A DNA stretch of 64,000 bases from Escherichia phage 308Ecol101PP, in sequence record OR062945.1; one strand, written 5' to 3'. Below are positions 15,710-48,096 of this stretch, piece after piece (position 1 is the first letter of the stretch; each line of letters starts with the position of its first letter). The notes below the pieces were generated by a model that saw only the letters and a program-made list of their open reading frames with translations, had not been told where the DNA came from and ran no database searches. The translations under genes and the position numbers were made by a program.

Positions 15710-15739
15710 AATAAATACCTCCTATAAACGTGGGAGGTA
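15710..15739 (+). promoter_or_regulatory. Lysozyme RBS-sequestering hairpin with embedded late-promoter-like AATAAATA
   Basis: TACCTCC (15716-15722) pairs with GGAGGTA (15733-15739), which contains the lysozyme SD GGAGG; 7/8 match to TATAAATA at 15710-15717. Confidence 0.45.
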
Positions 15740-15741
15740 TT

Positions 15742-16230
15742 ATGAATATATTTGAAATGCTTCGTAATGACGAAGGTCTTAGACTGACTTTATACAAAGA
15801 CACTGAAGGCTTTTGGACAATTGGCATAGGTCATTTAGTAACAAAGAACCCGTCTTTAGCTGTAGCTAAAGCTGAACTTGACAGAATGATCGGGCGTAAA
15901 TGCAACGGTACAATTACCCTTGATGAGGCTGAAAAGTTATTTAATGAAGACGTTGATAAAGCTGTTCGCGGAATCTTGGGTAATGTTAAACTTAAACCGG
16001 TATATGATTCTTTAGATGCGGTTCGTCGATGTGCATTGGTCAATATGGTCTTCCAAATGGGTGTAGCAGGCGTCGCTGGTTTTACTAATTCTCTTCGTAT
16101 GCTTCAACAGAAACGTTGGGATGAAGCGGCAGTAAATCTAGCACAATCTAAATGGTATCGTCAGACACCTAATCGCGCGAAACGCGTAATCTCAACATTT
16201 AAAACAGGAACTTGGAAAGCGTATATATGA
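15742..16230 (+). CDS. e: Endolysin (T4 lysozyme e)
   Basis: [32 protein letters not shown]...[27 protein letters not shown]: near-complete match to T4 lysozyme. Confidence 0.95.
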
Positions 16231-22197: not shown

Positions 22198-22779
22198 ATG
22201 GCTAGTTTAATTTTTACATATGCCGCTATGAACGCTGGTAAGTCTGCTTCATTACTTACTGCCGCACATAACTATAAAGAACGTGGCATGGGTGTATTAG
22301 TTCTTAAACCGGCTATTGATACTCGCGATTCAAAAGGTGAAATAGTCTCTCGTATTGGTATTCGTCAGGACGCCAATATAATTACAAAAGACATGGATAT
22401 CTTTGAATTCTATAAATGGGCTGCAGCACAAAAGGATATTCATTGTGTATTTGTTGACGAAGCTCAGTTCTTAACTACTGAAAAGGTGTATCAACTTAGT
22501 CGTATTGTTGACGTATACAATGTGCCGGTAATGGCATATGGACTACGAACAGATTTTAAAGGTAATCTATTTGAAGGTTCTCAAGCATTAATGGCTATTG
22601 CCGATAAGCTTGTTGAACTTAAAGGTGTCTGTCATTGTGGTAAAAAGGCCACAATGGTAGCTAGAGTCACGGAAGACGGACTTCCAATTACGGATGGCAG
22701 TCAAATTGAAATTGGTGATACCGATAGATATGTGTCATTATGCCGGAAGCATTGGAATGATTTGACAGGGTTGTTATAA
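22198..22779 (+). CDS. tk: Thymidine kinase
   Basis: MASLIFTYAAMNAGKSASLL P-loop; ...VDEAQFL...CHCGKKATM... typical TK. Confidence 0.95.
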   Translation: MASLIFTYAAMNAGKSASLLTAAHNYKERGMGVLVLKPAIDTRDSKGEIVSRIGIRQDANIITKDMDIFEFYKWAAAQKDIHCVFVDEAQFLTTEKVYQLSRIVDVYNVPVMAYGLRTDFKGNLFEGSQALMAIADKLVELKGVCHCGKKATMVARVTEDGLPITDGSQIEIGDTDRYVSLCRKHWNDLTGLL

Positions 22780-22782
22780 ATA
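22775..22782 (+). promoter_or_regulatory. TATAAATA motif overlapping tk stop (possible late promoter)
   Basis: Exact 8-mer 25 nt upstream of ATG 22807; could be chance in AT-rich DNA. Confidence 0.25.
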
Positions 22783-22806
22783 CTAATATCTAACCAAGAG
22801 GTATAT

Positions 22807-23019
22807 ATGCAGCAATTAAACGAAAGACAACTTCGTAATCTTACTGTAACCCAATTGGATGAAATCCGAAGAGAATTAGGACATTCTATTTCTCATTTAA
22901 ACGAGGATATCCGTCAAACTGGTTCTAAAGCTGATTATACACGCAAGCGCAAGCTGGAAAAATACCTCACAGATGTTAAGGCCGTCCAAAGGCGAAAAAT
23001 AAATACTGGCCAAAATTAA
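22807..23019 (+). CDS. Hypothetical protein
   Basis: SD GAGG; TATAAATA motif at 22775. Confidence 0.55.
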
Positions 23020-33281: not shown

Positions 33282-33312
33282 GTTTACAATGACGAAGAAA
33301 CGTGTTATGATG
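33282..33312 (+). promoter_or_regulatory. Possible early promoter (GTTTAC ... GTTATGAT)
   Basis: -35 consensus only; weak -10. Confidence 0.3.
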
Positions 33313-33360
33313 AACCTTCAATAAATGAATTAATTGATATGGAAATGGGAAGAGATTATT

Positions 33361-33531
33361 ATGCAAGTTAAATTATTGTACCGTTTATTAAAAAATGGCA
33401 AGCATGATTGGTATTTGCTTATTAAAACCGATCCGAATTTTTTCTCTGGACAACCATTTACAGTTCGTCCTACTAAACGTCAGCTTCGCAAAGCTAAACG
33501 TTCCCATCGTAACTTTTATAGAGAATATTGA
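33361..33531 (+). CDS. Small basic protein, VRPTKRQ-tail family
   Basis: C-terminal ...FTVRPTKRQLRKAKRSHRNFYREY. Confidence 0.5.
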   Translation: MQVKLLYRLLKNGKHDWYLLIKTDPNFFSGQPFTVRPTKRQLRKAKRSHRNFYREY

Positions 33532-33532
33532 T

Positions 33533-33946
33533 ATGAATATTTCTGAAACTCGCGGTAAATGGTTCAAGATTGTTAAAGAAGACGAAGAACTCCAAGATAA
33601 GTTTCCTGAATTAAAGAAAGATACGATCATCAAGGTAATTGGTACTACTACCGAAGATGGTTATGGCGACCATGGCATTATCGAAGTGATGTTGAACACA
33701 GGTGAGAAACTTTGCATCTATGACCGTGATACTTCTCTTTGGTGCTTCTGGGAATCCCATTCAATAGATGAACTCGAAGAAATTGACCAAGTAGTTTGTG
33801 ATGGTGGACTTGGCGAATTCGAAGGTGAACGTATTTCTTATGCTTTAGCTAAATTAGCCGCCCAAGAAAATAATGACGGTTATGAAGGTAATCTGATGCA
33901 AGCCGCAGCGGAATACATTGAATATTTAGAAAGACGTTTAAGTTAA
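33533..33946 (+). CDS. Hypothetical acidic protein
   Basis: ATG 33533 right after upstream stop; flanked by two VRPTKRQ-family ORFs. Confidence 0.65.
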   Translation: MNISETRGKWFKIVKEDEELQDKFPELKKDTIIKVIGTTTEDGYGDHGIIEVMLNTGEKLCIYDRDTSLWCFWESHSIDELEEIDQVVCDGGLGEFEGERISYALAKLAAQENNDGYEGNLMQAAAEYIEYLERRLS

Positions 33947-33955
33947 GGGCTTATT

Positions 33956-34135
33956 ATGAAAACTGCATTATTTTTTGGCGAAAGAACAAACGGTCAAAAA
34001 TCTTGGAAATTTGTTATAATTGGTGCTCCAAACAATCCGAACATGAGGACTTCAATCATTTCGGTAACACGTCCTACTAAAAGAATGATTCGCCAATACA
34101 AACGTTTCCATCGTGACTTTTATAACATTTATTAA
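33956..34135 (+). CDS. Small basic protein, VRPTKRQ-tail family (59 aa)
   Basis: MKTALFFGERTNGQKSWKFVIIG...SVTRPTKRMIRQYKRFHRDFYNIY; paralog of 33361 ORF; below ORF-track threshold. Confidence 0.45.
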   Translation: MKTALFFGERTNGQKSWKFVIIGAPNNPNMRTSIISVTRPTKRMIRQYKRFHRDFYNIY

Positions 34136-34137
34136 AT

Positions 34138-34168
34138 TATAAATACCCTTATCTAATATGGTAAGGGT
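34138..34168 (+). promoter_or_regulatory. Gene 49 late promoter TATAAATA plus hairpin sequestering the gene 49 ribosome-binding site
   Basis: TATAAATA 34138-34145; inverted repeat ACCCTTA (34145-34151) / TAAGGGT (34162-34168) whose 3' half contains the SD AAGGG. Confidence 0.5.
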
Positions 34169-34173
34169 TTATT

Positions 34174-34647
34174 ATGTTATTATCTGGCAAATTATACAAA
34201 GAAGAAAAACAAAAATTTTATGATGCACAGAATGGTAAGTGTCCTATTTGCCACCGTGAATTAGACCCTGATGTTCAAGGTAACCATCTTGACCACGACC
34301 ACGAATTAAACGGGCCAAAAGCAGGTAGAGTTCGTGGGTTACTCTGTAATCTGTGCAACGCAGCAGAAGGCCAAATGAAGCATAAGTTCAACCGTTCCGG
34401 TCTTAAAGGACGTGATGTCGACTACCTCGAATGGCTTGAAGCTCTTCTTGCTTATTTGAAACAAGATTATTCTGATAATAATATCCATCCTAATTTTGTT
34501 CCAGACAAAACTAAAGAGTTCTCAAGACTAGGTAAAGAGGAAATGATGGCTGAGATGCTTCAAAGAGGATTTGAATATAATGAATCTGATACCAAAACAC
34601 AATTAATAGCTTCATTCAAAAAGCAGCTTAGAAAGAGTTTAAAATGA
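34174..34647 (+). CDS. 49: Endonuclease VII (Holliday junction resolvase) gp49
   Basis: MLLSGKLYKEEKQKFYDAQNGKCPICHRELDPDVQGNHLDHDHELNGPKAG...; near-identical to T4 gp49. Confidence 0.95.
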   Translation: MLLSGKLYKEEKQKFYDAQNGKCPICHRELDPDVQGNHLDHDHELNGPKAGRVRGLLCNLCNAAEGQMKHKFNRSGLKGRDVDYLEWLEALLAYLKQDYSDNNIHPNFVPDKTKEFSRLGKEEMMAEMLQRGFEYNESDTKTQLIASFKKQLRKSLK

Positions 34648-36461
34648 AAATTGAAAAAGAAATTGAAGGATTAATTCATAAAACTAATAAAGATCTTTTG
34701 AACGAGAATGCTAATAAAGATTCTCGTGTTTTTCCAACTCAACGGGACCTTATGGCTGGTATTGTGTCTAAGCACATTGCCAAAAATATGGTCCCGTCTT
34801 TTATTATGAAAGCACATGAAAGCGGAATTATCCATTTCCATGATATTGATTATTCCCCTGCTCTTCCATTTACTAATTGCTGTTTAGTAGATTTAAAAGG
34901 AATGCTTGAAAACGGGTTTAAGCTAGGTAATGCTCAAATTGAAACGCCTAAATCGATTGGTGTTGCTACTGCAATTATGGCACAAATTACCGCACAGGTT
35001 GCTTCACATCAGTACGGCGGAACGACTTTTGCTAATGTAGATAAAGTACTTTCTCCTTATGTTAAACGCACCTATGCAAAACATATTGAGGATGCAGAAA
35101 AATGGCAAATCGCTGATGCGTTGAATTATGCCCAATCTAAAACAGAAAAAGACGTATACGATGCATTTCAAGCTTATGAGTATGAAGTAAATACTCTTTT
35201 TAGCTCAAACGGTCAAACGCCTTTTGTAACAATTACATTTGGTACTGGAACTGACTGGACTGAACGAATTATTCAGAAAGCAATTCTTAAAAACCGCATT
35301 AAAGGCCTTGGTCGTGATGGAATAACTCCTATTTTCCCTAAACTTGTTATGTTCATTGAAGAGGGTGTCAATCTTTATAAAGACGACCCGAACTATGATA
35401 TTAAGCAGCTTGCTCTAGAGTGTGCAAGCAAAAGAATGTATCCTGATATTATTTCAGTTAAGAACAATAAAGCTATCACTGGTTCATCTATTCCTGTTTC
35501 TCCAATGGGTTGTCGTAGTTTCTTGAGTGTATGGAAAGATTCGACTGGAAATGAAATTCTTGATGGACGTAATAATCTTGGTGTTGTAACACTGAATCTT
35601 CCTCGTATTGCGTTAGATTCTTATATTGGAACACAATTCAATGAACAGAAATTTGTTGAGCTATTTAATGAACGAATGGATCTGTGTTTTGAAGCCTTGA
35701 TGTGTAGAATTAGTTCTTTAAAGGGTGTTAAAGCAACTGTTGCTCCTATTCTTTACCAAGAAGGTGCATTCGGGGTTCGTCTTAAACCTGATGACGATAT
35801 AATTGAGTTATTTAAAAACGGTAGAAGTTCAGTGTCCTTAGGATACATTGGTATTCACGAATTGAATATTCTTGTCGGTCGTGATATTGGACAAGAAATT
35901 TTAACTAAAATGAATGCTCGTCTTAAGCAGTGGACTGAAAGAACCGGTTTTGCTTTTAGCTTGTATTCTACTCCTGCTGAAAACCTGTGCTATCGCTTCT
36001 GTAAACTTGATACCGAGAAATATGGAAGTGTAAAAGATGTTACTGATAAAGGCTGGTACACTAATAGTTTCCATGTTTCAGTAGAAGAAAATATCACTCC
36101 GTTTGAAAAGATTTCTCGCGAAGCCCCATATCATTTCATTGCGACTGGCGGACATATTTCTTATGTTGAACTTCCTGATATGAAAAATAACCTAAAAGGT
36201 CTTGAGGCTGTATGGGATTATGCTGCACAACATTTAGATTATTTTGGTGTTAATATGCCAGTAGATAAATGTTTTACATGTGGAAGTACTCATGAAATGA
36301 CTCCTACTGAAACCGGATTTGTTTGTTCTATTTGTGGAGAAACTGACCCTAAAAAGATGAACACCATAAGAAGAACATGCGGTTATCTTGGAAATCCTAA
36401 CGAACGCGGATTTAATCTCGGCAAAAATAAAGAAATCATGCATAGGGTTAAACACCAATGA
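34644..36461 (+). CDS. nrdD: Anaerobic ribonucleoside-triphosphate reductase NrdD (no intron)
   Basis: 605 aa continuous ORF; C-terminal Zn ribbon CFTCG...CSICG and glycyl radical motif RRTCGYLG. Confidence 0.95.
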   Translation: MKIEKEIEGLIHKTNKDLLNENANKDSRVFPTQRDLMAGIVSKHIAKNMVPSFIMKAHESGIIHFHDIDYSPALPFTNCCLVDLKGMLENGFKLGNAQIETPKSIGVATAIMAQITAQVASHQYGGTTFANVDKVLSPYVKRTYAKHIEDAEKWQIADALNYAQSKTEKDVYDAFQAYEYEVNTLFSSNGQTPFVTITFGTGTDWTERIIQKAILKNRIKGLGRDGITPIFPKLVMFIEEGVNLYKDDPNYDIKQLALECASKRMYPDIISVKNNKAITGSSIPVSPMGCRSFLSVWKDSTGNEILDGRNNLGVVTLNLPRIALDSYIGTQFNEQKFVELFNERMDLCFEALMCRISSLKGVKATVAPILYQEGAFGVRLKPDDDIIELFKNGRSSVSLGYIGIHELNILVGRDIGQEILTKMNARLKQWTERTGFAFSLYSTPAENLCYRFCKLDTEKYGSVKDVTDKGWYTNSFHVSVEENITPFEKISREAPYHFIATGGHISYVELPDMKNNLKGLEAVWDYAAQHLDYFGVNMPVDKCFTCGSTHEMTPTETGFVCSICGETDPKKMNTIRRTCGYLGNPNERGFNLGKNKEIMHRVKHQ

Positions 36462-46568: not shown

Positions 46569-47531
46569 ATGATTACTATCAATTCCAAAGAACACATTCT
46601 AGAACAGAAATATCGTCCTTCTTCCATTGACGAATGTATTCTGCCTGCGTATGACCATGAAACATTCAAGTCTTTAGTATCTAAAGGAAAACTTCCTCAT
46701 ATTATTTTGCACTCTCCTTCTCCTGGTACAGGTAAAACAACCGTAGCAAAAGCATTATGTAATGATATCAATGCCGAAATGATGTTCGTCAACGGTTCTG
46801 ATTGTAAGATTGATTTTGTACGGGGACCGTTAACCGCATTCGCTCGTTCAGTCTCAATGGAAGGCAAGCCTAAAGTTATTGTTATTGATGAATTTGACCG
46901 TAGTGGCCTCGCCGAATCACAACGTCACCTTCGTACGTTTATGGAAGAATTCTCTAGTAACTGCTCTATTATTATTACTGCTAACAACATCGATGGAATT
47001 ATTGAACCATTACGTAGTCGTTGTCGAGTTATCGAATTCGGACGTCCAACCGAAGAAGATAAAATCTCGATGATGAAGAAAATGATTCATCGTATGGTTG
47101 AAATCTGTAAGAACGAAAATATCGAAATCGCTGATATGAAAGTTGTTGCAGCTCTGGTTAAAAAGAACTTCCCAGACTTTCGTCGAACAATTGGCCAATT
47201 AGACCAGTACTCGTCTAAAGGTGTTCTTGATGCGGGTATTTTGTCTATCGTAACTAATGACCGTGGCACAGTCTCTGATGTTATCGAAGCAATGAAGAAC
47301 AAAGATATCAAACAGCTTCGTGCATTAGCTCCAAAATATGCCGCAGATTATTCATGGTTCATCGATAAATTAGTTTCAGAATGTTATGACCAAGTTGCAC
47401 CTGGTAAAAGTATTATTTCGCTTTATGAAATTGCAGGCGAAAACAATAAGTTTCATGGATTAGCAAGTAATATTGAATTACATGTTATGTATATGCTTCT
47501 TCAACTGACCTGCGAACTGACTTGGAAATAA
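46569..47531 (+). CDS. 44: Clamp loader large subunit gp44
   Basis: [27 protein letters not shown]...[15 protein letters not shown]...VIVIDEFD... AAA+ motifs; matches T4 gp44. Confidence 0.95.
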
Positions 47532-47532
47532 T

Positions 47533-48096
47533 ATGAACTTATTCGATGATGACGTCCAGCTTAACGAGCACCAAATTGCATGGAAGTCTAATGACGCTGA
47601 TGCGATTCAAAAATGTGCTGATATGTTTAAAGAAAAACCTGAGAATGAATTCTTTAAAATCATTAATGCTATTAATGAAAAGAAATCTATGTCAATTGCT
47701 CAGGTCGACTACTCAAAATTTATGGTTGAGAACTCATTATCCCAGTTCCCAGAATGTATGCCAGCTGTTTACATGATGAACTTAGTCGGTTCTGAATTAA
47801 GTGATGAAGCGCACTTCAACTATATGATGGCGGCAATTCCGCGTGGTCGTCGATTCTCTAAATGGGCTAAACTAGTCGAAGACACTTCAGAGTTACTAGT
47901 TATCAAACTGTTGATGAAACATTACACAATCAACATGAATGATGCTACTGAGTATAAGCGGCTCCTTGAAAAAAATAACAAGTTGCCAATAGTCCTTAAA
48001 GAACTGAAGGCCATGGTCACTGATGAGTTTCTCAAAGAAGTTACAAAAAATGTGAAAGAACAAAAACAATTTAAAAAATTAGCATTGGAATGGTAA
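47533..48096 (+). CDS. 62: Clamp loader small subunit gp62
   Basis: 187 aa ORF immediately after gene 44 (stop/start 1 nt apart), as in T4. Confidence 0.9.

Follow-up and report, generated by a model that had tools for sequence, protein, structure and literature searches.

The window analyzed here, a 64,000-nucleotide stretch of Escherichia phage 308Ecol101PP (OR062945.1), carries gene 49 at positions 34174-34647; this and the features mapped around it lie on the + strand. The open reading frame encodes a recombination endonuclease VII of 157 aa, as indicated by matches to PF02945, PF09124 and phrog_423, and the same product is annotated for gene 49 in PNJ-6, RB69 and other phages. The window gp49 is ~90% identical to gp49 of T4-type phages. 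The ATG at 34174-34176, the start given in the ORF list, is the true gene 49 start, as the product is endonuclease VII and its N-terminus, MLLSGKLYKEEKQKFY, matches that of T4 gp49. Upstream, the gene order is a second DUF7279 ORF, pin and a 59-aa DUF7279 ORF (33956-34135; PF23945, E = 1.8e-14), which according to the RB69 annotation is the orthologue of RB69ORF087c. Downstream follows an uninterrupted nrdD of 605 aa (34644-36461; PF13597 and PF01228), whose ATG overlaps the gene 49 stop codon in the sequence ATGA. Flanking of gene 49 by pin and nrdD is common to the window and T4. Over 1.4 kb around the site, the window matches Escherichia phages PNJ-6, PNJ-9 and JQD51 at 100% identity and RB69 at 95.6%. 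Judged by this sequence identity, the window derives from an RB69-like phage of the genus Mosigvirus, a relative of T4 and not T4 itself.

Two promoter-like sites lie upstream of and inside the gene. An early-promoter-like site at 33282-33311 consists of GTTTACA, a spacer of 17 nt and TG-n-TATGAT, which scored 10/12 with an extended TG in a consensus scan, and the orthologous site in phage SA79RD is labelled 'similar to T4 early promoter'. Long early transcripts that run through DUF7279, pin and DUF7279 into gene 49 probably originate here. Between this site and gene 49, a simple scan detected no terminator-like site other than the hairpin described below. Inside gene 49, a MotA-box middle-promoter-like site at 34556-34581 follows the pattern TGCTTNA-N11-13-TANNNT, which has 13 matches in the window compared with 3.3 expected; SA79RD labels this site 'similar to T4 middle promoter'. 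It could serve nrdD independently of read-through. With such a site in gene 49, nrdD would not need read-through, so the gene layout does not make read-through obligatory in this phage.

The junction between the 59-aa DUF7279 ORF and gene 49 is compact. Only 2 nt downstream of the DUF7279 stop codon TAA (34133-34135), a T4-type late-promoter motif of the kind used with gp55, TATAAATA, occupies 34138-34145. Its last A (34145) is at the same time the first base of a stem in which the 5' arm ACCCTTATC (34145-34153) pairs with the 3' arm GGTAAGGGT (34160-34168) across the loop TAATAT (34154-34159). The loop varies among relatives. Reading the sequence over 33700-34900 placed motif, arms and start codon exactly where the original prediction had put them, including ACCCTTA at 34145-34151, its partner TAAGGGT at 34162-34168 and the overlap of motif and 5' arm. 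The prediction was right about the pairing and too short in its extent, as folding gives a stem of 9 bp and not 7 bp, with a centroid energy of -12.7 kcal/mol in an 81-nt context and -12.3 kcal/mol for the minimal segment. The 3' arm holds the Shine-Dalgarno (SD) sequence, which we called by comparison with the E. coli anti-SD as known in general. The predicted distance of 6 nt between SD and ATG holds for GGG (gap 34168-34173); for the best anti-SD match, UAAGG at 34162-34166, the distance is 7 nt. UAAGG falls completely within the 3' arm. The observation of a late-promoter motif coupled to a hairpin that masks the ribosome-binding site is thus confirmed.

We asked how much of this arrangement is expected by chance within the window. 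Taken singly, neither motif nor hairpin beats chance. In this AT-rich window TATAAATA occurs 7 times compared with 7.4 expected, which is no enrichment. The hairpin gives a modest signal by itself, with z = -2.2 and 8 of 200 shuffles folding equally well; in a 53-nt context z is -2.5 and 4 of 200 shuffles are as good. The combination of the elements does exceed chance. Defining it as a TAAATA whose last A opens a helix of 9 bp or more, with the helix ending no more than 5 nt from where an ORF of 50 aa or more starts, we found it at 2 of the 50 TAAATA sites in the window, namely at gene 49 and at the lysozyme gene e. Both are T4 genes with published control of this type. A TATAAATA-hairpin candidate at 22775 was considered as a further instance and rejected as too weak (6 bp, -2.4 kcal/mol). 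An Rfam scan of 33800-34500 returned only two chance-level matches far below gathering scores, and no family covers the element.

To predict how transcripts of different length would behave, we placed the late start and folded the corresponding RNAs. Late motifs of the TATAAATA type occupy positions -13 to -6 (Nolan et al., PMC1524935). With the motif in this position, the predicted late transcription start (+1) is an A at 34151 ± 1 nt, which lies inside the 5' arm. A late RNA starting at 34151 retains AUC, three of the nine arm bases, and the other six are lost. In long RNAs of 350 nt and 980 nt, the latter modelled from the early-promoter-like site at 33282-33311, hairpin pairs have probabilities of 0.86-1.0 and the probability of being unpaired is 0.0 for positions 34160-34167, thus also for UAAGG. 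RNAs with 5' ends at 34151-34153 have hairpin pair probabilities of at most 0.27. Across 36 leaders, opening the region from -13 to +3 costs ~14 kcal/mol in the long RNA with any 3' context and ~4-6 kcal/mol in the late RNA. For the window the values are 13.9-14.6 kcal/mol compared with 3.9-9.1 kcal/mol, depending on the extent of 3' sequence included. The late RNA of the window is accordingly not fully open in the predictions. It forms a weak alternative hairpin of AU and GU pairs only (-6 kcal/mol) and, at equilibrium, 34164-34176 may pair over a long range with 34255-34269; these two structures account for the higher late values. The T4 late RNA does not reproduce a long-range pairing of this kind, so we dropped it as a feature of the element and retain it as a thermodynamic caveat. 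Ribosome loading during transcription would probably pre-empt it.

The evidence that the helix matters comes from comparing leaders. We collected gene 49 leaders from T4-like phages in two IMG/VR scans, using the protein in the first and a gp49 alignment in the second, and added GenBank sequences from T4, RB69, a Krischvirus, an Acinetobacter phage, the Aeromonas phages 44RR2.8t and 25, and KP15, resulting in 54 distinct sequences. The TAAATA core was found in all T4-like gene 49 leaders examined. In 52 of the 54, NNTAAATA with this core is accompanied by a helix whose first base lies 0-3 nt from its last A, in most leaders exactly on it, and whose far end is the SD or the AUG. Leader L102 forms no more than a weak helix of 4 bp. 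TAAATA is absent upstream of the endonuclease VII homologs in phages other than T4-like ones.

The stems differ greatly in sequence while pairing is kept. The 54 leaders contain at least 25 different basal stem variants, and since these maintain pairing through compensatory changes, the structure appears to be under selection. Among the first 32 distinct leaders there are 19 stem variants, each of which pairs 5/5 with its own partner arm; when arms are exchanged between variants, a mean of 2.58/5 positions pair and only 4.4% of the swaps are fully paired. Shuffled leaders yield such a helix in 11% of cases, compared with 32/32 of the observed ones. In a stem-only alignment 97.8% of cells are standard pairs, compared with 60.9% after shuffling, a value that 0 of 500 shuffles reach, and the covariation score is 1.03 compared with 0.235 in shuffles. 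Five of the six stem pairs show changes on both sides, and sliding the partner by 1-3 columns lowers pairing to 35-46%. Note that this alignment was anchored on the last A of the promoter and on the fold of each sequence itself, which biases it towards structure, a bias that the swap and slide controls answer only in part. A MAFFT alignment of the whole leaders (A1) was unusable for pair counts, as the 3' arms of different clades were out of register. Overall, the covariation supports a selected RNA structure.

Three observations argue specifically for a promoter combined with a mask. Aeh1-type leaders carry (G/A)CTAAATA, the late-promoter consensus of their own lineage as derived by Nolan et al. 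for Aeh1 late genes (PMC1524935). In 44RR and 25, both Aeromonas phages, AUGCUCU is the partner of the 5' arm, so that the start codon itself serves as 3' arm and the masked target would have shifted from SD to AUG under an unchanged logic. Finally, lineage L111 has TATAAATA within a hairpin of 20 bp, and its late RNA is predicted to be unstructured.

These comparisons also bear on whether the inverted repeat might act as DNA, either as a protein operator or as a cruciform, or whether octamer and hairpin merely co-occur by chance and have no function. The chance frequency of TATAAATA and the modest z of the hairpin in the window would be in keeping with such explanations, and autorepression at a late promoter does exist in T4 for I-TevI (PMC2988022). 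An operator or cruciform is nevertheless ruled against by the arms themselves, which change freely and keep their complementarity, G-U pairs included, a pattern that points to RNA. It is also established that repeats as short as 9 bp with a 6-nt spacer do not readily extrude as cruciforms. Distant genera keep the arrangement, which contradicts a chance co-occurrence. Neither an operator nor chance accounts for the coupling of one arm to the promoter and of the other to the SD or AUG. We regard these explanations as extremely improbable.

Existing annotations of the site disagree, as SA79RD carries a T4-late promoter at the orthologous position and the NBG1 and WFL6982-type records carry a terminator at the same place. 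Both elements have also been predicted in RB69, where Nolan et al. (2006) list a late promoter, Pl:47792, covering 47750-47792, and a TransTermHP terminator on the same hairpin at 47738-47760 with a 9-bp stem and confidence 98 (PMC1524935). The hairpin could thus be mainly a rho-independent terminator of the DUF7279-pin-DUF7279 unit, with the late promoter restarting transcription for gene 49 and the masking of the SD being incidental. This would agree not only with these terminator calls, but also with the form of the element, a 9-bp stem with 4 GC pairs followed by TTTATTATGTT that a simple terminator scan picks up, and with a nrdD that has a middle-promoter-like site of its own. However, UUUAUUAU is a short U tract with interruptions. 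Leaders beyond the T-even/RB69/JS98 clade have tails such as UAUGUUAU, UACAGCAU and UAAUGCUC behind the helix, and all but one of these leaders contain no U run longer than 2, yet the helix is still conserved with compensation. Termination as the conserved function is contradicted, as most other lineages with the helix lack the U tract. In addition, the position of the 3' arm invariably follows the SD or AUG and that of the 5' arm the last A of the promoter, neither of which termination requires, and in T4, with the same hairpin, gene 49 RNA is classed as early. We therefore consider a mainly terminating hairpin unlikely, while it may have a partial, additional terminator effect in the T-even/RB69 clade. 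A stem-loop with a T-rich stretch behind it is common to the element and to the rho-independent terminators known from T4-like phages, but the element differs from them in that the weak U tract is not kept in other lineages, whereas the stem and its links to the promoter and to SD or AUG are.

A stable local hairpin at an intergenic junction could also affect mRNA processing or stability, for example as a site for RNase III or another endonuclease, or as a 3'-protective hairpin for the upstream message, and T4 early mRNAs are known to be extensively processed (reviewed in PMC3014915). A 9-bp stem is, however, short for RNase III. Processing or protection would also leave unexplained why 5' arm and promoter, and 3' arm and SD or AUG, are coupled in 52 of the 54 leaders and why some variants pair with the AUG instead of the SD. 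This makes a processing or stability element very unlikely.

The masking hairpin with a late-promoter motif on its 5' arm closely resembles the leader of gene 49 in T4. Both lie at the orthologous place, with the pin-region ORF on one side and gene 49 on the other. The T4 leader agrees with the window in all of the 9-bp stem ACCCUUAUC/GGUAAGGGU, in the SD and in the spacer UUAUU, 5 nt long, before the AUG, and in both phages the late-promoter motif ends on the first stem base; the T4 orthologous site reads AATAAATACCCTTATCTATTTAAGGTAAGGGTTTATTATG. The window has a perfect TATAAATA, whereas the first octamer base differs in the AATAAATA of T4, and the loop is TAATAT in the window compared with TATTTAA in T4. 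Upstream, the window has the separate 59-aa DUF7279 ORF, whereas in T4 only its last ~18 codons remain, fused to pin.

A further difference concerns a second translation start within T4 gene 49. The 1988 title by Barth and colleagues reportedly also names a nested protein made from an internal start. The T4 record shows AGGAAAGGTG with GTG at codon 53, but the window has GGTAGAGTT with GTT at 34330-34332, and a T4-style internal start for two nested proteins was thus not found in the window. GTG at codon 53 of gp49 is present in only 4 of 49 loci. With GTT instead of GTG, the shorter nested protein is probably not made in this phage.

For T4 itself, Barth, Powell, Trupin and Mosig (1988, Genetics 120:329) are said to have mapped early and late transcripts of gene 49. 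Uzan and Miller list gene 49 together with e, soc and I-TevI among the T4 genes whose SD and/or AUG is sequestered in a helix; they detail the escape by a late promoter for e and I-TevI, while gene 49 is merely listed (PMC3014915). Edgell et al. cite Barth et al. 1988 for the same class (PMC2988022). In a T4 time course, gene 49 RNA was classed as early and no protein class was assigned (PMC9697503 supplement), although a middle promoter inside the gene could add reads to this RNA class. An early RNA without a protein class fits, if weakly, an early read-through transcript that is poorly translated. A supplement on NAD-capped T4 RNA has no mapped T4 late 5' end near 46879, and our literature search yielded no genome-wide map of T4 transcription starts.

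The second instance of the combination in the window is the leader of lysozyme gene e, with AATAAATA at 15710-15717, a helix of 15717-15725 with 15730-15738 and the ATG at 15742. As described for T4 (McPheeters et al. 1986, via PMC3014915), gene e belongs to the same class of mechanism, its SD being masked by a hairpin whose 5' strand carries a late promoter, but it is another gene and its stem sequence is unrelated. The structure of gene e is reported to be absent in Aeh1, 44RR, 25 and 31 (PMC3014915). Leaders of Aeh1-type phages, 44RR and 25 do have the gene 49 structure, which thus appears to be more deeply conserved than that of gene e.

Similar control is known from I-TevI, I-TevII, I-TevIII, segB, Aeh1 mobE and soc. 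These are also late genes within early or middle units, with ribosome-binding sites that are sequestered in long transcripts and freed in those from late promoters (PMC2988022). The homing endonuclease leaders and soc have no sequence relationship to the gene 49 element. I-TevI differs in addition by DNA-binding autorepression of its own late promoter (PMC2988022), of which there is no indication at gene 49.

The original prediction had proposed that the two-transcript control of T4 gene 49 is conserved in this DNA, and both the orthology with T4 and the covariation support this. Given the anatomy, the predicted structures, the T4 orthology and the family-wide selection for pairing documented here, the gene 49 leader is probably the RB69-type orthologue of the T4 temporal translational switch with two transcript classes. 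For this phage we infer promoter activity, the exact 5' end, read-through transcripts and the size of the translational effect. Early and middle transcripts would begin far upstream, for example at 33282-33311, and cross DUF7279, pin and DUF7279. Carrying both arms, these long transcripts would form the 9-bp hairpin of about -12 kcal/mol that buries UAAGG. The buried SD would bind the 30S subunit poorly, and little endonuclease VII would be made during the period in which the DNA replicates and carries branches. At late times, gp55-RNA polymerase would use TATAAATA at 34138-34145 and start at about A34151. The resulting RNA, without six of the nine 5'-arm bases, would not form the hairpin and would be translated. 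As the late-promoter motif sits on the very hairpin arm that hides the ribosome-binding site, only the short late transcripts should be translated well.

The mechanism of control is already known from T4, and the copy in the window is real but ordinary. What is possibly new is solely the breadth and depth of its conservation. The module ranges over T-even, RB69-type, Klebsiella, Acinetobacter, Aeromonas (44RR, 25) and Aeh1-type phages, and in the literature we searched we found no comparative description of how the gene 49 switch is conserved. Tentatively, and with slightly more doubt than confidence, the gene 49 promoter-in-hairpin might be the most deeply conserved cis-regulatory RNA switch of T4-like phages (Straboviridae), with the hairpin of the T-even/RB69 clade acting also as a partial terminator as a second possibility.

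Endonuclease VII cuts branched DNA. The switch may plausibly exist to delay its synthesis until late, when packaging requires that concatemers be debranched. For the window, the analysis mostly bears out the existing annotation. Gene 49 should be treated as a late-translated gene within an early region, and a plain terminator annotation of its hairpin, of the kind seen in some database records, should be avoided. Its family-wide conservation with many compensatory changes provides a clean, textbook-style example and leaves the understanding of the mechanism unchanged. If it is indeed undescribed, the element would be a good, covariation-supported model of how strongly selection acts against early endonuclease VII synthesis.

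The leader of the lysozyme gene e (15710-15744, + strand) has the same architecture as that of gene 49. The late-promoter motif AATAAATA (15710-15717, +) is followed by a 9-bp helix formed by ACCTCCTAT and GTGGGAGGT (15717-15725 with 15730-15738, +; -12.7 kcal/mol), and in the predicted fold this helix masks the Shine-Dalgarno sequence (SD) of the gene, whose ATG at 15742 (+) opens a 162-aa product with a Phage_lysozyme match. It represents the classic switch known from gene e of T4. Elsewhere in the window, a perfect TATAAATA precedes a weak 6-bp hairpin (-2.4 kcal/mol) within 22775-22809 (+). The hairpin overlaps GAGGT, and ATG 22807 of a 70-aa ORF (phrog_1826) comes next. This site may be a weak form of the gene 49-like promoter and hairpin arrangement, or a product of chance.

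In the predicted late RNA of gene 49, the SD-AUG region (34164-34176, +) can also pair with codons 28-32 of the gene (34255-34269, +) through 13 pairs, G-U included. The pairing is predicted once the RNA includes 100 nt or more of the gene's coding region, and with it the predicted opening energy rises to 8-9 kcal/mol. As the same pairing is not seen for T4, the modeled interaction is probably fortuitous. Further into the gene, T4 has an annotated internal start for a shorter, nested gp49 at codon 53, a GTG after AGGAAAG, whereas the same codon is GTT in the window (34330-34332, +). Only 4 of 49 related loci have GTG at this codon, and most relatives probably do not make the nested protein.

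Upstream of gene 49, two paralogous small ORFs (DUF7279, phrog_3272; 33334-33531 and 33956-34135, both +) lie one on either side of pin, and both end in RPTKR..R.YKR.HR.FY. The tail of this family is matched by the C-terminal ~18 residues of the 161-aa Pin protein of T4, so the T4 gene appears to have arisen by a deletion that fused pin to a DUF7279 gene. At one IMG/VR locus (L006), the tail of the other paralogue directly precedes the gene 49 promoter, an arrangement that suggests recombination between DUF7279 repeats. On the downstream side, nrdD is a single uninterrupted 605-aa ORF (34644-36461, +), unlike T4 nrdD, where a group I intron carrying I-TevII divides the gene. Because the nrdD start codon in the window shares bases with the stop codon of gene 49 (ATGA), the two genes may be translationally coupled. 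A middle-promoter-like site with a MotA box, TGCTTCAAAGAGGATTTGAATATAAT (34556-34581, +), lies within gene 49, ~65 nt upstream of nrdD; matches to the MotA-type pattern are enriched across the window (13 versus 3.3 expected), 10 of the 13 being on the + strand.

Two variant leader geometries were found in relatives. In IMGVR_UViG_2974770551_000001 (L111), the variant lies ~60 nt upstream of the gene 49 start, where a 20-bp hairpin (-16.3 kcal/mol, z = -3.9) contains TATAAATA in its 5' arm and loop and has UAUUGGAGGAA as its 3' arm; the predicted late RNA has a folding energy of 0 kcal/mol. In Aeromonas phages 44RR2.8t and 25 (L051 and L052), the variant sits 30 nt before the start. Here the 5' arm AAGAGCAUA, which follows TTAAATA, pairs with UAUGCUCUU, comprising the start codon and first codons, while the loop holds a GGAGG SD. 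In the modeled fold of these two phages, the masked target is shifted from the SD to the AUG.
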